Assembly: GCA_964388115.1 (NCBI GenBank)
Contig: CAYLYK010000001.1
Location: 1,001,205-1,065,204 of the forward strand
Source: an uncultured Hyphomicrobiales bacterium
GTDB lineage: Bacteria > Pseudomonadota > Alphaproteobacteria > Reyranellales > JAQSWP01
DNA length: 64,000 bases
Reading direction: 5' to 3'
Of this stretch, positions 3,577 to 37,836 are shown piece by piece. The position numbers and the translations under genes were made by a program. How positions within the stretch are numbered: the first letter of the stretch is position 1; each line of letters opens with the position of its first letter. Below the pieces are notes generated by a model, which saw only the letters and a program-made list of their open reading frames with translations, was not told the origin of the DNA and did not search any database.

Positions 3577-4957
3577 ATTCGCCCGCCGCGCGCAGATCGG
3601 CAAGCGTCAGATCGAGCGCCTTGGTCACGCGGACGAACATCTCGTCGATGTCGGCCACGGTCATCACCAGCGGCGGCGAGAAGGCGATGGAATCGCCCAT
3701 GTTGCGCTGGATCAGGCCGTTGTTCTGAGCGTGCTTGGCAACGAGGCCACCCGCGCCGGCGGCGACGGGGAAGGCCTCGCGACTCTTCTTGTTCTTCACC
3801 ATCTCAACGGCGCCGATCATGCCTATGCCGCGCACCTCGCCGATCAGCGGATGCTCGCCCAGCTTGCGCAAGCCCGCCTGCATGACCGGCCCGACCTTGC
3901 GAACATGCCCAACCAAATCGATCTCGTCGTAGATTTTCAGCGTCTCGCAGGCGACAGCGGCCGGCACAGGGTGGCCTGAATAGGTATAGCCATGCCCGAA
4001 CGTGCCGATCTTTTCGCTTTCCAGAAGCATCGCCTGCCATATCTTCTCATTCACCATCACCGCCGAAATCGGCAGGAACGAGGCCGATAGCGCCTTGGCG
4101 CAGGTCAGGATGTCCGGCTTGATGTCGAAAGTCTGGCAGCCCCAGTAATTGCCGGTGCGGCCGAAGCCGCAGATCACTTCGTCGGCAATGAACAGCACGT
4201 CGTGCTTCTTCAACACCGCCTGGATCTTTTCGTAATACGTGGCGGGCGGCACGATGACGCCGCCGGCGCCCATCACTGGCTCGGCGATGAAGGCGGCGAC
4301 GGTTTCGGGGCCTTCTCGCTGGATCATCGCATCGAGCGACTCGGCCAGGCGCGTGGCGAACTGCTCCTCCGTCTCGCCCGGCTGGCCGAAGCGATAGAAG
4401 TGCGGGCAGTCGGTGTGCAGCACATTGGCAATCGGCAGATCGAAGTCGCGATGGTTGTTGGGCAGACCGGTCATGCTGGCCGCGGCGATGGTGACGCCGT
4501 GATAGCCCTTGATGCGCGAGATGACTTTCTTCTTCTTCGGCCGGTCGAGCGCGTTGTTGTAGTACCAGACCAGCTTCAGCGCGCTGTCGTTGGCTTCCGA
4601 GCCGGAATTGGCGAAGAACACGCGGGCCATGGGGGCCGGGGCGCGCTTCAACAGCATTTCGGCCAATTCGATCATCGGCTCGTGCGATTTGCTGGCGAAG
4701 CCATGATAGAAGGGCAACTGCCGCATCTGCTTCAATGCTGCCTGAACCAGCCGCTCGTTGTCGAAGCCGAGCGAGGCGCTCCACAGACCGGCCATGCCCT
4801 CGAGATAGTCGTTGCCCGAATCGTCGTAGACCCGGACGCCTTTGCCGCGGGCGATGACCAGCGGACCTTCCGTCAGATGCTTCTTCAACTGGGTGTAGGG
4901 ATGGACGACCGAGGCGATGTCGCGCGCCTGCAGCGAGTTGGGAGCGTTGTGAGTCAC
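3566..4957 (-). CDS. Class-III (omega) aminotransferase, PLP-dependent
   Basis: GLWSASLGF, FANSGSEANDSALK and ADEVICGFGRTG motifs. I place the start at GTG 4957, preceded by AAGGAG at 6-nt spacing. The ORF-track start at 5125 adds an implausible leader. Confidence 0.9.
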   Translation of the reverse strand: MTHNAPNSLQARDIASVVHPYTQLKKHLTEGPLVIARGKGVRVYDDSGNDYLEGMAGLWSASLGFDNERLVQAALKQMRQLPFYHGFASKSHEPMIELAEMLLKRAPAPMARVFFANSGSEANDSALKLVWYYNNALDRPKKKKVISRIKGYHGVTIAAASMTGLPNNHRDFDLPIANVLHTDCPHFYRFGQPGETEEQFATRLAESLDAMIQREGPETVAAFIAEPVMGAGGVIVPPATYYEKIQAVLKKHDVLFIADEVICGFGRTGNYWGCQTFDIKPDILTCAKALSASFLPISAVMVNEKIWQAMLLESEKIGTFGHGYTYSGHPVPAAVACETLKIYDEIDLVGHVRKVGPVMQAGLRKLGEHPLIGEVRGIGMIGAVEMVKNKKSREAFPVAAGAGGLVAKHAQNNGLIQRNMGDSIAFSPPLVMTVADIDEMFVRVTKALDLTLADLRAAGEFKG

Positions 4958-5276
4958 TGTCGTCTCCTTAAGGCCTGTCCGGCTACGGGCGGGTAATGCT
5001 GCGTTGCAATGTCGAATTCGATCGGCCAGCGTAAAGCCAATGCGGGCGCTAGACCAGACGGGTTCTCGACAGAAACCGTCGCCCGGCGCATCGGCTGTGC
5101 CGTTTTCGGTCTTGTTGCCTGACAAACCACGCTCCGTGGCGCTACGCGATTGACTCGCCTAACGGAGTGTTCTACGCGATAGGCCAAGGACATGCCGGCA
5201 TTCCGCCGGATTCTGTCCAGAATGTCAGAGCCCGTCCGGCAAAGGGCGGCTAAACACAAATTGGGAGACGAGATCC

Positions 5277-25040: not shown

Positions 25041-26153
25041 CTATTGCGTGCCGGCGTAGCGTTCGACGATGGCCGGAACGCGGGTCCTGCCGTCGAAGCA
25101 CACGATGACGGCGTCATGCGCCATGTTGCCCTTGCTGTCGGAGCGGTAGCGCATCGCCAGGCCCTGATGTGGCTGGCTGGCCAGATACTCGCGGACTTGC
25201 GGGCCATCCTTGGCGCCCGATTTCAGCGCCGCCAACATCATCATCGTTCCATCGTATTGCGCCACTGCGAAGGCATCGGGTTCGCTGGAGAATTCTTTTC
25301 GATAGTCGGCAGTGAATTTCTCCATCGCTGGCGAGCCGCCGGAAACCGGCGAGGCGGCCGTTTCGGCACAGACGCCAGCTAGATCGCGCGGCGACAGCAG
25401 TTCGGCGGTGGCAGGCTGGTGCATCGCCGACCCGGCGACGATTGGCAGGGTAATACCTTGGGCACGCGCCTGCGAGATTGCCAACGCGGTGCTGGGCGCG
25501 TGCAGATGCAGGATCAGAACATCCGCACCGGCCGCTTGCGCCTTGACCAGCGCCGGCAGGAGATCCTTCACCGTCGGGGCCAGGCCTTCCTCGTAGACCA
25601 GCGGCGCGCCCAGGCGGGCGAACTGTTCCGCTAGATGCTGGCGTCCGCTCTGGCCATAGGCCGTGGTTTGGTAGAGCAGCGCCGGCTTGCGCTTGCCCAG
25701 TTTCTCGACTGTGTAGCGCGCTTGCGCCAGCTTTACGACGTCGTCGCCAGGGAAGAAGCGAAACACCCACTTGTTGTCGAGCTCGGTGATCTTCGCCGTC
25801 CCCGATACGGTCACCAGCGGAATGCTTTCGCGTTCGGCAAGCGGCAGCAGCGCCAGCATCTGCGTCCCCAGCATCGGCGCCACGATCGCGGGGGTCTTGC
25901 CGCTGCGCAGCGCGCGCTCGAAAGCCGTTACCGCGCCCTCGGGCGTCACGCCGGTATCGATCACCTCAGTTTTCAGCGCGGCGTCGGCGTGTTTCAACGC
26001 CAGCAAGGCGCCATTGCGCTGGCTGGTTCCTTCCAGCGCCAGGAAGCCTGTAATCGGCACCAGGACGGGCAGACGCGCGGTATCGGCTGACGCTGGAAAG
26101 ACCGGCAACAGCAGCAAGACAAGCGAAAAAGCAAACGAGCGGAGTTTAGTCAT
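25041..26153 (-). CDS. ABC substrate-binding protein, LivK / periplasmic binding protein type 1
   Basis: Signal peptide MTKLRSFAFSLVLLLLPVFPASA. Peripla_BP_6-like body. Confidence 0.85.
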   Translation of the reverse strand: MTKLRSFAFSLVLLLLPVFPASADTARLPVLVPITGFLALEGTSQRNGALLALKHADAALKTEVIDTGVTPEGAVTAFERALRSGKTPAIVAPMLGTQMLALLPLAERESIPLVTVSGTAKITELDNKWVFRFFPGDDVVKLAQARYTVEKLGKRKPALLYQTTAYGQSGRQHLAEQFARLGAPLVYEEGLAPTVKDLLPALVKAQAAGADVLILHLHAPSTALAISQARAQGITLPIVAGSAMHQPATAELLSPRDLAGVCAETAASPVSGGSPAMEKFTADYRKEFSSEPDAFAVAQYDGTMMMLAALKSGAKDGPQVREYLASQPHQGLAMRYRSDSKGNMAHDAVIVCFDGRTRVPAIVERYAGTQ

Positions 26154-26357
26154 GGCGGGCTCCCTTGCGCTGGCATTACCCAGATCAGGTTCGTTGGGTT
26201 TGATCTCAGCCGGACGAAAAGCCCGGCACCCCAGCCTGTGCGGCGAAGAATGGGAGCGGCGGCCCGGCTTGTCAACGCGCTCCGGGGGAATTATCTGCGT
26301 TCGTCAAAGGGATATTGGCCGCAGCGTCCTTTGATCGGGTATTCTAGGCAGCGGAAG

Positions 26358-26921
26358 ATGGTGGAAGCAGGACGCGTGCAGCAGGATATCGAGATCGATC
26401 TGAAGGCGCTGGTCGCGGGCGATAAGCGGAGCTGGGATGCCTTTTGCGCCCGCTACGCACCGGCCATCAACGCCGCGGTACGGCGCGCCTTCGGAACCGG
26501 GCGGCCGACGCATGACGATCTGCTCGATGCAGGGCAGGAAGTGTTTCTCAAGCTCTGCCGCGATGATTACAAGCTGCTGCGCGAATTCGATCCCAAACGC
26601 GCCAGGCTTTCGACCTGGATCGGCATCATCGCCTATTCGACAGCCGTCGACTGGCTGCGCCGGCGCCGACCGACCTCGAACATCGATGATGTGCCCGAAG
26701 CGGCGCTCGCGGTGCAGCCGGTCGAGCAGCAACATCTGCAGATACCGGACGGGCTGTTGAGCGAGCGTCAAGCTCTGGTCCTGAAGATGATCTATGACCG
26801 CGAAATGGATGTTCCCGAGATTGCAAAGCTGCTCAACATCGAGGCCCAGACGGTCCGGTCTACCCATCACAAGGCTCTGATTAGATTGAGAGAGCATTTT
26901 CGGGTGCCGGCGGGGGGATAG
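26358..26921 (+). CDS. ECF-type RNA polymerase sigma-70 family factor
   Basis: Region 2 (DAGQEVFLKL...FDPKRARLSTWIGIIAYSTAVDWLRRR) and region 4 (LSERQALVLKMIYDREMDVPEIAKLLNIEAQTVRSTHHKALIRLR). Start at MVEAGRV is assumed. Confidence 0.85.
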   Translation: MVEAGRVQQDIEIDLKALVAGDKRSWDAFCARYAPAINAAVRRAFGTGRPTHDDLLDAGQEVFLKLCRDDYKLLREFDPKRARLSTWIGIIAYSTAVDWLRRRRPTSNIDDVPEAALAVQPVEQQHLQIPDGLLSERQALVLKMIYDREMDVPEIAKLLNIEAQTVRSTHHKALIRLREHFRVPAGG

Positions 26922-26959
26922 TTGCCTCGAATTCGCCGTATAGCCTGCTGAGGACTGAA

Positions 26960-27448
26960 ATGACTGATGAATTTGACCCCATTGAGGCGCGCCGCCTGTG
27001 GCGCCAGGTAGCCCAGCCGGCCCGACGCGACACCGTCACGGCGCTGGAGCTTGCCGCATGGCTGGACGGCAAGGCTGACGCTTCCTTGGCGGCGCGGGTC
27101 GAGCGCGCCATGGCGGCCGACGATTCACTGCTTGAAATGGCGCTGGCTGCGCGTGCTGCCAGCGAAACCAATGAGCCGGCGCCGGAGCGGCTGCTGGTGA
27201 GGGCCCGGGCGTTGGTGGCGCCCCAGGTGATAGGCGCCAAGCCGGCAGGCTTTCTGGCGCGCCTGGGATCGTGGCAACGCGGCATGCAATGGGCGGCGAT
27301 CGGCGCCTGTTTCCTTATTGCTGCCAGCGGCGGATTCTGGATCGGCGATACGGCGAGCAACACGGTCAGACTGTCGGCCGAACCGGCAAGCTTTACGCTG
27401 CTGGGCGTGGATGACGAATCCACTGATTTGTTCGACGAGGAGATATGA
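26960..27448 (+). CDS. Putative anti-sigma factor (single-pass membrane protein)
   Basis: Position immediately after the ECF sigma gene. One TM segment (WAAIGACFLIAASGGFWIG) near the C-terminus. No zf-HC2 motif seen. Confidence 0.55.
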   Translation: MTDEFDPIEARRLWRQVAQPARRDTVTALELAAWLDGKADASLAARVERAMAADDSLLEMALAARAASETNEPAPERLLVRARALVAPQVIGAKPAGFLARLGSWQRGMQWAAIGACFLIAASGGFWIGDTASNTVRLSAEPASFTLLGVDDESTDLFDEEI

Positions 27449-27939
27449 GTATGCGTACCAAACTGCCCTGGATTCTTCTCGCGATTTCCGTTGTGCTCAA
27501 TGTTTTCGTCGTCGGTGGTTTCTTCTACGCCAAAGGCCAGAGCGAAGTGCGCATGATGGACCGGTCGCCGATCATGGCGGCGGTGCGCGATCTTAACCTC
27601 ACTGGTACTCAGAAGCAGGCGCTTGAGAAAATGCGGACAGATATCCGCAAATCGTCGAGCGATATTCGCGACGAGATGCGCCCCTTGCGGCGCGAACTGC
27701 TGACGGAACTGGCCAAGCCGCAACCGGATTTTGCCGCGGTCGACCGCAAGATTGATGATCTGGGCGATGTTCAGAGCAAGAGATTCAAGGCCATGGTCCG
27801 TGCCGTACACGAATTCCAGCAGACGCTGACGCCCGAGCAGCAGGAAGCGTTCCGCAAGGGCATTCGCGACAACATGGGACGGCGCGGATTTCGAGGCGAG
27901 CGGCGCGATCGCGATGGCACGCCGCCGCCTTCGCGCTAG
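27445..27939 (+). CDS. Membrane-anchored LTXXQ-motif protein (Spy/CpxP/ZraP-like 'periplasmic heavy metal sensor' family)
   Basis: N-terminal TM segment, then LNLTGTQKQAL and LTPEQQEAF motifs. ATGA overlap with the anti-sigma gene. Confidence 0.7.
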   Translation: MSMRTKLPWILLAISVVLNVFVVGGFFYAKGQSEVRMMDRSPIMAAVRDLNLTGTQKQALEKMRTDIRKSSSDIRDEMRPLRRELLTELAKPQPDFAAVDRKIDDLGDVQSKRFKAMVRAVHEFQQTLTPEQQEAFRKGIRDNMGRRGFRGERRDRDGTPPPSR

Positions 27940-27966
27940 ACGCGGCTCGACAGTCCGGAGGGGCGG

Positions 27967-29505
27967 ATGATTCGATCGAAGATGTTACGTGGCGTGGCAA
28001 TCGGTTTTGGCATCGCCGTCGCTTTGGCGTCCTCCTCCGTTCTCGCCGCTGCCATGGGCACTGATCAGGCCCGTCATCTGCTTGCCCGCACCGGTTTCCA
28101 GCCGACGCCGGAAGAAGTCGCGCTCTTCGAACGTCTCGATTATGTCGATGGCGTCGAGCGCATCCTTGGCGGCATGCGCGCCAAGGCGGCAACGCCGCTG
28201 CCCGATTGGATGGGCATGTCGCCGATCGAGTTCTTCCAGGTCAATCGCGAACAGCGTCGCGAGAATCGCGAGATGAAGGATGCGCAGGCTCTGGGCAAGC
28301 AGATGGGGCTGGACAAGGATCGCGTCCTAAAGATCGCCAGTCTGGTGAGGGAGCAGGGTGCCGAGGCCAAGGCATGGTGGTATCGAGAGATGCTGACTAC
28401 CGATTCGCCTTTCACCGAGCGCATGGTGCTGTTCTGGCACGGCCACTTCACGTCCAGCGTGCAGAAAGTCAAATACGTGCCAGCGCTGGTGCGACAGAAC
28501 GAACTGTTCCGGCGCGAAGCGGCAGGCAATTTCGGCCGGCTGCTGAAGGAGGTCGCGCGCGATCCGGCGATGCTGATGTATCTCGATGGCGCGACCAGCC
28601 GCAAGGACAGTCCCAATGAGAATTTCGCCCGCGAGCTTCTGGAGCTTTTCACCATCGGCGAAGGCCAGTATGGCGAGCGCGATATCAAGGAAGCGGCGCG
28701 GGCCTTCACCGGCTGGTCGATCGACCGGCAGACCGGGGCGCATCGCGTCTATCGCGTCATCCATGACGATGGCGACAAGACGTTTATGGGCCGCAGCGGC
28801 AATTTCGACGGCGACGACATCGTTGCAGCGGTGCTGGCCCATCCACGCACGGCCGAACGCGTGGTCGAGAAGCTGTGGTTGGAGTTCGTCTCACCCAAAC
28901 CGGAACCGACGGAAGTAAAGCGGCTAGCGGGCATTCTGCGCGGCGCCAACTACGAAATGAAGCCGCTGCTGCGCGCCATGCTGCTGTCGCCGGCTTTCCG
29001 CGACCCGGCCAATCGCGGCACGCTCTTCAAGTCGCCGGTCGAAATGACGGTGGGCACGTTGCGCCTGCTGCAGATTCCAGTCGACGACACGCAGCGGCTG
29101 GTCAGGGCCGGCAGGCTGTTGGGTCAGGACGTGTTCGATCCGCCCAACGTGAAGGGGTGGCCAGGCGGCGAAGCGTGGATTTCCTCCTATACGCTGATGC
29201 TGCGCGAGCAAGGGCTGCAGCGCATCATCCAGGCGACTCAGATTGCGGGCGGCCGGCGTGACATGGGGCGGCCGAAGAACGACATGGCGGACAAGGAACA
29301 GCTCGCCGAAACGCCGGTCGAAGGCCGGTCGATGCGCAACGTGCCCATGGTCGTGCGTCTGCCGGCAACGCTCGACGGTCTCGACCGGGCAAGGCTTGAA
29401 AAGATCATGCTGGCCCTGCCGCCGATCACGCCCGTGCCGCGCGACGCAGCACCCGGTTCGGCGATGGCGCTGATGATGCTCGATCCCGTCTACCAGCTGA
29501 AATAA
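27967..29505 (+). CDS. DUF1800 family protein
   Basis: FWHGHFTSS...NELFRREAAGNFGRLLKEVARDPAMLMYLDG...NENFARELLELFTIGEG...FTGW is the characteristic DUF1800 pattern. N-terminal signal/anchor. Confidence 0.85.
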   Translation: MIRSKMLRGVAIGFGIAVALASSSVLAAAMGTDQARHLLARTGFQPTPEEVALFERLDYVDGVERILGGMRAKAATPLPDWMGMSPIEFFQVNREQRRENREMKDAQALGKQMGLDKDRVLKIASLVREQGAEAKAWWYREMLTTDSPFTERMVLFWHGHFTSSVQKVKYVPALVRQNELFRREAAGNFGRLLKEVARDPAMLMYLDGATSRKDSPNENFARELLELFTIGEGQYGERDIKEAARAFTGWSIDRQTGAHRVYRVIHDDGDKTFMGRSGNFDGDDIVAAVLAHPRTAERVVEKLWLEFVSPKPEPTEVKRLAGILRGANYEMKPLLRAMLLSPAFRDPANRGTLFKSPVEMTVGTLRLLQIPVDDTQRLVRAGRLLGQDVFDPPNVKGWPGGEAWISSYTLMLREQGLQRIIQATQIAGGRRDMGRPKNDMADKEQLAETPVEGRSMRNVPMVVRLPATLDGLDRARLEKIMLALPPITPVPRDAAPGSAMALMMLDPVYQLK

Positions 29506-29515
29506 CGGTGCGACC

Positions 29516-30688
29516 ATGCTGAAGCGACGCGATTTCCTTTCTTTGGCCGGCGGCATGTCCGTCATGCTGGCGACGCGACCCTTGCTGGCCGCGCCTTCTG
29601 CAGCCGCGCCGAACTGGGATCGTGTGCTGGTGCTGGTGGAACTGAAAGGCGGCAATGACGGGCTCAATACGGTGGTGCCCTATGCCGATCCCGCCTATCG
29701 TCGCCTGCGACCCAATCTCGCCATCGATCGCGATCAGATCGTCCAGCTCTCTCCAGAACTGGGTCTCAATCCCGGATTGAAGCCGCTGCTGGAGTCATGG
29801 AAATCGGGCGATATGGGCGTGCTGCTCGGCCTGGGCTATCCCAATCCCAATCGCTCGCATTTCCGGTCAATCGAGATTTGGGATACGGCGTCGGCCAGCA
29901 ACCAGTATCTCAGCGAAGGCTGGATCGCCCGCGCTTTGCAGGGCAATCCGCGACCCCCGTCGTTCACTCTCGATTCGGTGGTCATCGACGACAACGTGCT
30001 ACCGGTCAGCGGCCCGGGCGTGCGCAACATCGTGCTGCGCGACGTGGAGAACTTCATCCAGCAAGCCGAGCGCATGAAGCAGGTGGCGGCCGATCGCGGC
30101 GCCAATCCGGCGATGCGGCATCTGCTGAAAGTCCAGGGCGAAATCCATCAGGCCGCCTTCACCTTGCGCGATCGCATGAAAAGCGCCCCCGCGCCGGCGG
30201 TCGAGATGCCTAACAATCCGTTTGGCAAGCAGCTTGATCTTGCCTTGCGCCTTTTGATGTCGAAGACGCCGCTGGCGGTAATCAAGGTGGGGCTGGGTGG
30301 ATTCGACACGCATGCGCGCGAGCGCGAGACGCATGACCGGCTGATGGGCGTCCTGGGCGAAGGCCTGGCGGCGTTCCGTACATCGCTGAAGAAGGCGGGG
30401 CTGTGGGATCGCGTGCTGGTGATGACCTATTCCGAGTTCGGCCGCCGGGTGGCCGAGAACGGCAGCCGCGGCACCGACCACGGCACGGCCGCGCCGCATT
30501 TCGTTATGGGCGGCAAGGTCAAAGGCGGTTTCCATGGCCGGCAGCCGCCGCTCAACGATCTCAGCGAAGGCGACGTCAAGCACAGCGTCGATTTCCGCAA
30601 CGTCTTCGCCACCGTGTCGCAGCGCTGGTGGGGGCTGGCCGGCGGCGACTTCATGGGTGGCCGCGCCCAGTTGCTGGACTTCGTCTGA
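29516..30688 (+). CDS. DUF1501 family protein (sulfatase/phosphatase-like fold), Tat signal
   Basis: MLKRRDFLSLAGG twin-arginine leader. ELKGGNDGLNT...GFDTH...GTDHG motifs. Confidence 0.85.
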   Translation: MLKRRDFLSLAGGMSVMLATRPLLAAPSAAAPNWDRVLVLVELKGGNDGLNTVVPYADPAYRRLRPNLAIDRDQIVQLSPELGLNPGLKPLLESWKSGDMGVLLGLGYPNPNRSHFRSIEIWDTASASNQYLSEGWIARALQGNPRPPSFTLDSVVIDDNVLPVSGPGVRNIVLRDVENFIQQAERMKQVAADRGANPAMRHLLKVQGEIHQAAFTLRDRMKSAPAPAVEMPNNPFGKQLDLALRLLMSKTPLAVIKVGLGGFDTHARERETHDRLMGVLGEGLAAFRTSLKKAGLWDRVLVMTYSEFGRRVAENGSRGTDHGTAAPHFVMGGKVKGGFHGRQPPLNDLSEGDVKHSVDFRNVFATVSQRWWGLAGGDFMGGRAQLLDFV

Positions 30689-30691
30689 CCG

Positions 30692-31462
30692 CTAAAGTCC
30701 GGTGATCCGCTTTACCAGCGGAAAGTAAACGCGGTACGGCAATAGCTGCAGCAGCTTCAGCAACAAAGTGAAACGCAGCGGGAAATGGATCTCGAAGCGG
30801 CTGCCTTCCAGCCCCTCGGCGATGCAGCGGGCCGCTTGCTCTGGCTCCATCAAGGCGGGCATCTTGAAATCGTTCTTGGCGGTAAGCGGCGTGCGCACGA
30901 ATCCGGGGCTTATCAGCTGCACCTTGATGCCGCGCTCGGCGAGATCCAGATGCAACGTCTCGGCCATGTTGATCAAGGCTGCCTTGCTGGCGCCATAGGC
31001 CAGCGCCTGTGGCAGCCCGCGATAGCCGGCAACGCTGGCGATAATCGCGATATGTCCTTTGCGCGCATCCAACATTGGCGGCACCAGCGCCGCCAGACAG
31101 TTCAGGACGCCTTCGATGTTGACCCGCATCGTCTGTTGCGCGGCCGGCAGGTCGAGCTCGAAAGCCCGCATCGGCGAATAGGCGGCCGCGCCCAGTACCG
31201 CCACATCGATGCCGCCCCATTCGGCCTGCAGGATGGTGGCGGCATTGCCGACGGCTGTAGCATCGGTGGTGTCGAGCGGCAGGGCGCGATGGCCCGAGCC
31301 CAGCAATCCGATCGCCAGAGTGTTGAGGGCATCGGCGGAGCGGGCCGACACCGCCAGACGAGCGCCACGGCCGGCCAGTTCCCGCGCCAGCGCCGCGCCG
31401 ATGCCTGAGGAGGCGCCGACGATCCATACTCGCTTGCCAGTCCAGAAATTCGATCCGCTCAT
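30692..31462 (-). CDS. SDR-family oxidoreductase
   Basis: WIVGASSGIGAALAREL (TGxxxGxG-like) and YGASKAA catalytic motif. Confidence 0.85.
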   Translation of the reverse strand: MSGSNFWTGKRVWIVGASSGIGAALARELAGRGARLAVSARSADALNTLAIGLLGSGHRALPLDTTDATAVGNAATILQAEWGGIDVAVLGAAAYSPMRAFELDLPAAQQTMRVNIEGVLNCLAALVPPMLDARKGHIAIIASVAGYRGLPQALAYGASKAALINMAETLHLDLAERGIKVQLISPGFVRTPLTAKNDFKMPALMEPEQAARCIAEGLEGSRFEIHFPLRFTLLLKLLQLLPYRVYFPLVKRITGL

Positions 31463-31483
31463 GCAGCAGATACGAACCAGGTG

Positions 31484-32860
31484 CTAGGTTCGTTCACTTT
31501 TCAATCGTGAAATCGGCTTGCGGTATTGCCGCCATTGCTTGCGCACCGAAGGTTTGGCCGATTCGACCCGAATTCGCCACAGCCACGCAACCGCCAGGAG
31601 TTTCACCAAAGCGGGAAGGGCCGCATAGACAGCGATCAACGCCCAGCCGGATTCGGTATGGCCCGGCTTGTAACCTAGCACATCGAGCATCGGCAGCGCG
31701 ATGCCGCCCCCGATCGCGGTGGTGATCTTGGTCGCCATGGCCCAGAGGCCAAAATACTTGCCCGACTCGCCCTGGCTGTCGCTGACTTCGTTGTGAATCA
31801 CGTCGGCAAGGATCGCAGGCGGCAGGCCATAATCTGCACCCAGTCCGAACCCGGCCAGAACGCAAACGATCAGATAGCCCGTGACGTCGCCTGCTCCCAC
31901 GAACATCGCCAAAGCGAGGCCGCCGCTGCTGAAGATTATGCCGGCAAACCAGGCGCCCGATTTACTCGTGCGCTTGGAAAGCCAGAGCCAGAACGGCACG
32001 CTGAACATGCCCGAGGCGAAATAGGCCAGAATGAACCAGACCTTGTGCTGCGGCGCCTCGACGATGTCGTCGATGAAGAATAGGACGACGGACGCTGCGA
32101 TCGCCACGGCCGAACCGTTGATGAGGTAGACCGCAAGCAAGGTGCGGAAGCGTTTGTTGCGGAACGGCGCCACGAAAACCCGGCTGATGCTGAAGGCATT
32201 CTTGGGCACAGGCGGCGTAACCGGCCGCGGCTTGAACACCCAGATCAGAATCGCCGGCACCAGTAGCAGCGGCAGGAAGGTCACCGCCAGCCGTGCATGG
32301 CCCTGTAATTCGCCGAACAGAGTGACGAAATAGGGCGGCAGGGCAGCGCCCAGCAGCAAACCCAGAATGCCGAATACTTCGCGCCAGACGGTGACTCGGG
32401 TGCGCTCGTTGTAGTCGTAACTCAGTTCGGCGCCGAGCGAGTGGTAGCTGATCGACACGCCGGAATAGCCCAGATGCACCACAATCAACGCCAGCAGCAG
32501 ATAGAGCAGCATGGCGTGACCGGTCAGATCCGGTGGCGAGAAGACGGCAAAGAAGCCGATGCCCAGAATCGGGACCGAGCCGACAGCCATCCACAACCGA
32601 CCGTTCTTGCGATGCGTCAGCCGGTCGCTGAAATAGCCGATCAGCGGATCCTGAATGGCGTCGATCAGACGGGTCAGCAGGAAAATGATGCCGATCAGCG
32701 TCAGGTTGACGCTGAAATGCTTGCCGTAGAAATGCGAGACGTTGAGAACGATGGGTAATGCCGCCATCGCCAGCGGCAATTGCAGCATCGAATAGGCCCC
32801 AAGACTCCACCCACTCAAACGCACGGGCGCGGCCGTCGGATTGTCTGACGTGGGGGTCAA
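31484..32860 (-). CDS. MFS transporter (GPH/MFS_2-like)
   Basis: 458 aa, multi-TM. RLIDAIQDPLIGYFSDR is the typical GPH loop motif. Confidence 0.8.
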   Translation of the reverse strand: MTPTSDNPTAAPVRLSGWSLGAYSMLQLPLAMAALPIVLNVSHFYGKHFSVNLTLIGIIFLLTRLIDAIQDPLIGYFSDRLTHRKNGRLWMAVGSVPILGIGFFAVFSPPDLTGHAMLLYLLLALIVVHLGYSGVSISYHSLGAELSYDYNERTRVTVWREVFGILGLLLGAALPPYFVTLFGELQGHARLAVTFLPLLLVPAILIWVFKPRPVTPPVPKNAFSISRVFVAPFRNKRFRTLLAVYLINGSAVAIAASVVLFFIDDIVEAPQHKVWFILAYFASGMFSVPFWLWLSKRTSKSGAWFAGIIFSSGGLALAMFVGAGDVTGYLIVCVLAGFGLGADYGLPPAILADVIHNEVSDSQGESGKYFGLWAMATKITTAIGGGIALPMLDVLGYKPGHTESGWALIAVYAALPALVKLLAVAWLWRIRVESAKPSVRKQWRQYRKPISRLKSERT

Positions 32861-37810: not shown

Positions 37811-37836
37811 TACGCGCGGCGGAGCTTCGCGGATCA
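37811..37836 (-). promoter_or_regulatory. Candidate ECF11 (RpoE-ChrR-type) promoter TGATCC-N16-CGTA upstream of phr
   Basis: The minus strand reads TGATCC gcgaagctccgccgcg CGTA. The -10 element lies about 50 nt upstream of the phr ATG. It matches my recollection of the sigma-E/ChrR regulon consensus. Confidence 0.5.

Follow-up and report, generated by a model that had tools for sequence, protein, structure and literature searches.

The window analysed here is a stretch of 64,000 nucleotides (nt) on contig CAYLYK010000001.1 of an uncultured Hyphomicrobiales bacterium. It contains five co-directional open reading frames (ORFs) encoding, in this order, a sigma factor of the extracytoplasmic function (ECF) type, a candidate anti-sigma factor, a protein of the LTXXQ and Metal_resist families, a DUF1800 protein and a DUF1501 protein with a signal for twin-arginine translocation (Tat). 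The genes are separated by 38 nt, by a 4-nt ATGA overlap in which the start of the LTXXQ gene meets the stop of the anti-sigma gene, by 27 nt and by 10 nt. The coordinates and gaps given for these genes in an earlier reading of the same DNA (below, the original prediction) were reproduced by the ORF check, and its family calls for the sigma factor, the LTXXQ protein, DUF1800 and DUF1501 agree with the Pfam and NCBIfam matches. A promoter-like motif is found in the gap between the sigma and anti-sigma genes (Table 1). On balance we favour, with some confidence, the interpretation of this locus as an ECF switch, consisting of the sigma factor, a zinc-finger-derived single-pass anti-sigma factor and a periplasmic PF13801/LTXXQ protein, that gained the DUF1800/DUF1501 pair as its cargo in one alphaproteobacterial lineage (Reyranella, Vineibacter and their relatives).

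Table 1. Coordinates of the five-gene module, its promoter-like motif and neighbouring features in the window
Feature	Coordinates	Strand	Basis
ECF (group IV) sigma factor	26358..26921	+	Sigma70_r2, Sigma70_r4; TIGR02937
Promoter-like motif of ECF type, GGGGATA-N16-CGTA	26914..26940	+	pattern match
Anti-sigma candidate, single-pass	26960..27448	+	position +1, weak profile matches, hydropathy
LTXXQ / Metal_resist protein, CpxP/Spy/ZraP superfamily, membrane-anchored or exported	27445..27939	+	PF13801, PF07813
DUF1800 protein, N-terminal signal-like hydrophobic segment	27967..29505	+	PF08811
DUF1501 protein with Tat signal	29516..30688	+	PF07394
Thiamine pyrophosphate (TPP) riboswitch	26144..26243	-	RF00059, 66.4 bits
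ATP-binding cassette (ABC) operon	26153 down to about 22439	-	Peripla_BP_6 / ANF_receptor, BPD_transp_2, ABC ATPase
Photolyase operon, six genes	37760 to 30692	-	
TGATCC-N16-CGTA upstream of the photolyase gene	37836..37811	-	perfect match to the consensus

The motif in the window reads GGGGATA-GTTGCCTCGAATTCGC-CGTA. The -35-like element (26914-26920) overlaps the stop codon TAG of the sigma gene (26919-26921), the -10-like CGTA occupies positions 26937-26940, and a ribosome-binding site GAGGA follows downstream (26950-26954). Bipartite k-mer enumeration upstream of the sigma genes yielded GATG-N16-CGTA in five loci from different clades, and this led to the gap site GGGGATG-N16-CGTA, which is present nearly everywhere among the loci scanned. 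In 46 of 52 non-identical loci, the pattern GGAT[GA]-N16-CGTA occurs between positions -45 and +75 relative to the sigma stop codon; the background is 24 matches in 3.35 Mb (0.00086 per 120 nt), so that the enrichment in the gap is about 1000-fold. In the 45 unique sites, GGGAT and CGTA are invariant, and the spacer is variable in sequence and fixed at 16 nt in length. All this is accompanied by a T-rich stretch before CGTA, a ribosome-binding site AGGAG and a roughly constant distance from CGTA to the ATG codon of the anti-sigma gene, about 20 nt in most sites. The motif occurs also in the loci L036, L155 and L156, and in distant trios of sigma, anti-sigma and LTXXQ genes that lack the DUF pair (L119, L126, L110 and L117), one of them from an organism with 40% GC. 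A scan of positions 25900-31600 with the sigma-70 consensus produced no match.

Another ECF group, RpoE/ChrR, is known to use a -10 element CGTA at a spacing of 16 nt (PMC5507510), which makes the motif of the module credible as an ECF promoter. As motif and sigma gene occur together, we infer that the adjacent sigma factor is its reader. Since the motif follows the sigma gene and precedes the anti-sigma start by some 20 nt, the sigma-dependent unit likely consists of the anti-sigma, LTXXQ, DUF1800 and DUF1501 genes, and the sigma gene itself remains outside it.

Alternatively, the motif could be read by a different sigma factor, by way of cross-regulation, or be bound by some other regulator. 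Indeed, the promoter of the rpoE8 trio of Azospirillum brasilense is also activated by another ECF sigma factor, RpoE6 (PMC12826043), the -10 CGTA with N16 is shared with an RpoE/ChrR-type motif 11 kb away in the window, and most loci have no motif copy ahead of the sigma gene. However, it accompanies this sigma family through genomes that differ widely, also in GC content, and always adjoins it; the -35 element GGGGATG differs from TGATCC of the RpoE/ChrR type; and region 4.2 of the sigma factor does not vary among the loci in which the motif occurs. Thus a foreign reader of the motif seems rather improbable.

Extra copies of the motif were found only on the coding strand and at promoter-like places: before the sigma gene in L003 (4112-4137), L005, L008, L106, L118 and L155 (3285-3310), and before the cargo genes of L126. 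The regions upstream of the sigma gene in the window (about 26296-26345), L001 and L002 contain GGGATA without CGTA at N16, which we read as a decayed copy. Some lineages therefore seem to have lost positive autoregulation and others to have retained it. No copy of the motif and no conserved block was found before DUF1800, where the gaps of 10-37 nt contain a ribosome-binding site only. The original prediction had proposed to compare a promoter motif with 26154-26357 and 27940-27966; the motif is in neither, as the former region is part riboswitch with the decayed copy, and the latter holds just the ribosome-binding site.

The riboswitch in question is a TPP riboswitch on the minus strand and serves the divergent ABC operon, so that half of the presumed promoter region of the sigma gene belongs to that operon. 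The operon encodes a Peripla_BP_6 / ANF_receptor binding protein, BPD_transp_2 permeases and an ABC ATPase. The binding protein belongs to a family of the branched-chain-amino-acid type, a transporter family that is unusual behind a thiamine-related riboswitch. Immediately upstream of the riboswitch, the minus strand shows a sigma-70-like promoter sequence, TTGACA-N17-CATTCT, and the arrangement of riboswitch and ABC operon is kept in L001-L003.

A single promoter upstream of the sigma gene, common to all clades, was considered and rejected, as neither alignment nor bipartite k-mer enumeration gave a shared motif. In the largest subclade there is a conserved block upstream of the sigma gene, which is ambiguous as a promoter. 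A block of about 50 nt, GACTGTAGCGGGGCCTGATTTCGCCACAAACCCTGTTAAACTGCAGGGCGGAC, is highly conserved between a divergent gamma-glutamyltranspeptidase gene and the sigma gene in L006, L007 (about 4225-4290), L009-L011, L013 and most metagenome loci. It holds the near-direct repeats ACTGTAGCGGGG and ACTGCAGGGCGG and an element TGnTAAACT that resembles an extended -10. The sigma reading frame itself may have been annotated six codons too long from ATG 26358, and GTG 26376 is the possible true start: 12 aligned orthologues start at this position.

The order sigma factor, unannotated protein, Metal_resist, DUF1800, DUF1501 is kept in loci with DUF1800 identity from 97% down to about 51%, among them all homologues looked up between 79% and 52%, and all related loci have the PF13801 protein at position +2. 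The upstream flank alternates between the riboswitch with the ABC operon and the gamma-glutamyltranspeptidase gene. The downstream flank is a photolyase cluster in most loci; in L155 it consists of isochorismatase and ABC genes, and in L156, which comes from an isolate assembly (GCA_007859315.1), of a TetR gene. As both flanks turn over between loci and the five genes stay together, the module persists as a unit.

A DUF1800 profile run against a single genome of each species gave 80 DUF1800/DUF1501 loci, which were then searched with hidden Markov models (HMMs) derived from the module proteins. The full module is present in six of them (L008-L013, Reyranella-like). L036, a deeper alphaproteobacterial contig with 42% DUF1800 identity, contains the 3' end of the sigma gene followed by the anti-sigma, Metal_resist and DUF genes. 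In this search the ECF trio was absent from 73 of the 80 loci, belonging to Burkholderiales, Thiotrichales, Verrucomicrobiota and other Alphaproteobacteria. When the 74 loci that do not belong to the core clade were searched again under lenient settings, a single weak sigma-like ORF turned up, 5 kb off and on the opposite strand. In a metagenome scan with the sigma profile, loci were binned by sigma HMM score and counted if the contig was long enough. DUF1800 follows the trio in all 24 loci with scores of 290 or more, in two of four at intermediate scores and in none of four at low scores, and the distant trios adjoin unrelated genes instead of the DUF pair. The expectation that DUF1800/DUF1501 pairs would be recurrently linked to ECF sigma genes thus holds within one clade and fails as a general rule.

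One of the distant relatives, a metagenomic contig with 40% GC (L126, 3509-5843), carries a trio with a zinc-finger anti-sigma factor and a second motif copy at 5195. The latter is followed by genes of two paralogous small secreted cysteine-containing proteins of 83 and 78 amino acids, that is, by a different cargo of the same switch.

In a neighbour-joining tree of DUF1800, drawn without support values, the 14 ECF-linked proteins form one clade with no unlinked member, and L036 stands apart on a long branch. We conclude from these distributions that the trio appears to be an older, self-sufficient unit, that the DUF pair appears to be a widespread unit, self-sufficient as well, and that their fusion was apparently one lineage-specific event, stably kept since. 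The suggestion that the pair is under dedicated sigma control likewise survives in part: in this lineage it is probably so, given the conserved linkage and the motif before the four distal genes, and it is not a general feature of such pairs.

On the other hand, the adjacency could be simple inheritance of gene order, with DUF1800 and DUF1501 functionally unrelated to the trio and transcribed from their own promoter in or after the LTXXQ gene. The many pairs without a trio and the distant trios without a pair show that each unit works alone, and all linked loci fall in one clade, so that conservation could reflect descent. However, the unit is intact where both flanks have been replaced, the short gaps before DUF1800 have nothing in common except the ribosome-binding site, and there is no terminator-like site between LTXXQ and DUF1800. 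Positions 25900-31600 contain six terminator-like sites, no excess over the 4.5 expected by chance, and none of them is in the intergenic gaps of the module. Finally, loci differ in the sequence that encodes the LTXXQ C-terminus, which argues against a conserved promoter embedded in it. We therefore regard mere inheritance of the order as unlikely.

The sigma factor matches PF04542 and PF04545/PF08281 in Pfam and the sigma70-ECF model TIGR02937 in NCBIfam (64.8 bits, cutoff 42.9). It contains sigma-70 regions 2 and 4 only and scores above the cutoff of the ECF superfamily model, and thus belongs to the ECF sigma factors (group IV). Its best solved relatives are weak, namely SigW 5wuq (E 1.3e-5) and, second, Rhodobacter sphaeroides RpoE 2q1z_A (E 6.9e-5).

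The anti-sigma candidate of the window has no Pfam or NCBIfam match, zf-HC2 included, and its counterpart in L005 has a faint match to zf-HC2. A profile of nine orthologues compared with the PDB gave three chains at E < 10, all of them anti-sigma domains: RslA 3hug_B (E 0.031), ChrR 2q1z_B (E 0.087) and a second ChrR chain, weak matches with E of 0.03-0.1 overall. Distant members of the family have the zinc motif HxxxCxxC at the aligned position (HLAACPAC in L119, HLASCPAC in L126), and in the window protein it is replaced. Thus the latter is a candidate derivative of the zinc-binding anti-sigma (ZAS) family, with an N-terminal cytoplasmic anti-sigma domain whose zinc ligands have been lost. 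Residues 111-129 form a hydrophobic segment whose Kyte-Doolittle value is 1.59 for the window protein and reaches 2.06 among its relatives. It is followed by a tail of 33 residues ending in a conserved LG...DLF, close to the 35 or so periplasmic residues that the original prediction had estimated. In a distant relative, L118 (460-2200), what appears to be a Metal_resist-like protein with an N-terminal extension comes directly after the sigma gene and the motif, with no separate anti-sigma gene between; this may be a fused or reordered variant.

The LTXXQ protein matches PF13801 Metal_resist (56.9 bits, cutoff 29.2) and PF07813 LTXXQ (43.2 bits). Its hydrophobic N-terminal segment spans residues 5-31, and two LTxxQ motifs, LTGTQ and LTPEQ, are found at residues 52 and 128. 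The NCBIfam equivalog models were not reached: the scores are 24.7 against 148 for the CpxP family, 23.2 against 174 for Spy and 21.0 against 160 for CpxP. By these scores the protein is assigned to the broader LTXXQ and Metal_resist Pfam families only. A PDB search gave a weak match to Spy (3o39). CpxP and ZraP are periplasmic modulators of a membrane signalling protein; they are induced by the pathway that they modulate, hence the feedback is negative. The window protein shares the LTXXQ helical family with CpxP, Spy and ZraP. It differs from them in being paired with an anti-sigma factor rather than a histidine kinase, in keeping the N-terminal hydrophobic anchor, and in lying far below the equivalog cutoffs. 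Metal sensing by this protein was considered and rejected, as it has no cysteine, one histidine and no obvious metal-binding motif. Thus "Metal" is here no more than the name of its Pfam family, and nothing beyond this name indicates metal sensing in the module. The protein may be the sensory partner of the anti-sigma factor, and the role of the module may lie in envelope stress.

The cargo consists of two proteins from families for which homologue searches yielded at least 8000 candidates each. Among the matches listed, the closest homologues of both are metagenomic, and the named ones come from the Alphaproteobacteria Reyranellaceae, Reyranella and Vineibacter. DUF1800 scores 355.8 bits with PF08811 (gathering score 26.1). 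Its AlphaFold2 model is all-alpha, with a predicted local distance difference test score (pLDDT) of 84 and a predicted template-modelling score of 0.84, and a Foldseek comparison of the model with the PDB gave nothing below E 0.78. Sequence searches of the PDB found no relative for either DUF1800 or DUF1501, and the DUF1800 model may represent a fold without a solved representative.

DUF1501 scores 125 bits with PF07394 (gathering score 27). Its leader MLKRRDFL contains the twin-arginine motif followed by a hydrophobic stretch (MLKRRDFLSLAGGMSVMLATRPLLAAPSAA), as required of a Tat signal, and the protein is predicted to be Tat-exported. Residues N47, D48, R113-S114-H115, D264-T265-H266 and T320-D321-H322 are invariant among 53 homologues. 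Foldseek matches the AlphaFold2 model (pLDDT 82) to sulfatases, LtaS, YejM/PbgA and phosphonate monoester hydrolase, all with probability 1.0 and E values between 1e-6 and 1e-4, at a low global template-modelling score of about 0.3-0.4. The formylglycine motif [CS]xPxR was not found in DUF1501, which contains no cysteine. By its model DUF1501 has an alkaline-phosphatase/sulfatase-superfamily fold, and by the missing motif it is not a type I (formylglycine) sulfatase. The sulfatase/phosphatase-like core and the RRDFL leader named in the original prediction are both recovered. Any enzymatic activity of DUF1501 or DUF1800 is putative.

If the module is an ECF switch with an acquired cargo, it would operate as follows. 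The sigma gene would be transcribed from its own upstream region. The anti-sigma factor would hold the sigma factor at the membrane. The translationally coupled LTXXQ protein, in keeping with its presumed sensing role, would modulate the anti-sigma factor through the latter's tail, which is short, conserved and periplasmic. A periplasmic signal would release the sigma factor, which would then use the GGGGATA-N16-CGTA promoter and transcribe the four distal genes as a single unit. One outcome would be negative feedback, by more anti-sigma factor and LTXXQ protein. The other would be a periplasmic output consisting of DUF1501, a Tat-exported metallo-hydrolase-like protein, and DUF1800 as its obligate partner.

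Several observations weigh against this scheme. The identity of the anti-sigma factor relies on weak profile matches (E 0.03-0.09) together with gene position. The loop of DUF1501 that would be catalytic, residues 114-119 with S114, is modelled at low confidence. The window motif has A in the -35 element where most sites have G, a variant shared by seven of the 45 unique sites, the window included. No intact copy of the motif precedes the sigma gene of the window, so that the usual positive autoregulation is missing, nor was a sigma-70 consensus found in the region. A promoter may lie inside the LTXXQ coding region. Finally, the conserved loci are phylogenetically related, and their counts are not counts of independent events.

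Downstream of the module, on the minus strand, there are six tightly packed genes encoding photolyase, amine oxidase, DUF1365, a cyclopropane-fatty-acid (CFA) synthase-like protein, MFS_2 and SDR proteins. The photolyase gene is preceded by a perfect TGATCC-N16-CGTA, and L009, L011 and L012 have T(G/C)ATCC-N16-CGTA. This is the consensus of the singlet-oxygen sigma factor RpoE/ChrR, whose core regulon consists of the same genes (PMC5507510). A scan for TGATC[CA]-N15-18-CGTA found no site in 26100-30700, only that upstream of the photolyase operon, and the RpoE/ChrR motif was rejected as a target of the module sigma factor. One could nevertheless suppose that this convergent operon is the main target of the sigma factor, and that the latter is a photo-oxidative stress regulator replacing RpoE-ChrR. 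The operon lies directly against the module in the window, as it does in most relatives, the 64-kb window encodes no ECF11 sigma factor or ChrR, the second-best solved relative of the sigma factor is RpoE of R. sphaeroides, and the anti-sigma profile touches the ChrR domain. However, the operon promoter follows the RpoE/ChrR consensus and not GGGGATG, the module has no such operon alongside in L155 and L156, and the similarities to RpoE and ChrR are marginal; we thus consider this target very unlikely. Given the different -35 element and the occurrence of the module without the photolyase operon, the two are treated as separate regulons.

The stop codons of DUF1501 (30688) and the convergent SDR gene (30692) are 3 nt apart, which leaves no room for terminators, so the transcripts of these differently regulated convergent operons must overlap at their 3' ends. 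L001-L003 have a similar spacing, and a 4-nt overlap of the two genes is seen in L006. Transcriptional interference between the convergent operons is possible.

The recognition of the first three genes as an ECF signalling trio was correct, and the architecture sigma/anti-sigma/PF13801 has already been catalogued (Casas-Pastor et al. 2021, PMC7826278). In group ECF281 of that catalogue, the sigma gene is followed by the genes of a zinc-finger anti-sigma factor (+1) and of a heavy-metal resistance protein of family PF13801 (+2). The module has an anti-sigma candidate at the first of these positions and a PF13801 protein at the second, a likeness of gene architecture by which the trio may be called ECF281-like, and the distant relatives of its family keep the zinc-finger HxxxCxxC in the anti-sigma factor. 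In contrast to ECF281, the module has lost the zinc ligands, acquired DUF1800 and DUF1501, and has a conserved motif after the sigma gene. ECF281 is mentioned by no other paper in the literature searched. Group ECF290 also has a PF13801 protein at +2, with an RskA-like anti-sigma factor (PMC7826278); this fit was rejected, as Pfam detects no RskA-like domain in the window protein and only 33 residues follow its membrane segment.

In A. brasilense, the rpoE8 operon encodes RpoE8, a hypothetical protein and a periplasmic sensor for heavy metals; it is tricistronic, co-induced and auto-activated, and its function is unknown (PMC12826043). Its three genes have the same order and annotation in an alphaproteobacterium, a comparison by gene order and not by homology. 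It differs from the module in having no DUF1800/DUF1501 cargo and in that the promoter tested is upstream of rpoE8. A plasmid collection searched for a link to RpoE8 contained no close relative of the window sigma factor.

The CnrYXH system consists of an ECF sigma factor, a short membrane anti-sigma factor and a membrane-anchored periplasmic sensor controlling it, with an adjacent cargo operon. The module shares this three-component logic with adjacent cargo. However, the gene order in the Cnr system is cnrY-X-H, the anti-sigma factor belongs to the CnrY type, CnrX as the sensor falls outside PF13801, and the cargo is an efflux pump of the resistance-nodulation-division type. CnrYXH of Cupriavidus metallidurans is assigned to group ECF291 (PMC7826278). 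RpoE-ChrR (ECF11), in turn, resembles the module in the -10 element and spacer length, as described above; apart from the -35 element, it differs in that ChrR is cytoplasmic and has a cupin domain.

Some DUF1800/DUF1501 pairs adjoin bacterial chitin synthase genes (PMC5122149). These pairs have the same two-gene order and a Tat signal in DUF1501, but no ECF trio. In the literature searched, the pair is never linked to an ECF sigma factor, and scarcely anything has been published on either family. Thus, although the trio is of a known architecture, its coupling to the DUF pair and the motif appear to be undescribed.

A more specific proposal, which we offer tentatively and with more doubt than conviction, is that an ECF switch, restricted to negative feedback since the sigma-dependent promoter is located after the sigma gene, has the DUF pair as its dedicated output in the periplasm. 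The response would be a self-limiting pulse. DUF1800 would be a specificity or partner subunit of DUF1501, a Tat-exported hydrolase of the alkaline-phosphatase superfamily, and this enzyme would mend or reshape a component of the envelope when the LTXXQ protein and the anti-sigma factor sense stress.

DUF1800 and DUF1501 are very large families, neither of which has a known function. The presence of the pair behind a predictable ECF promoter would provide a genetic switch for two uncharacterised families, in one lineage only, and the ligand of the LTXXQ sensor would point to the physiological role of the pair. With the motif, a catalogued ECF architecture that is experimentally uncharacterised gains a target sequence open to test. 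In this arrangement it would be the anti-sigma factor, and not the sigma factor, that is placed under sigma control.

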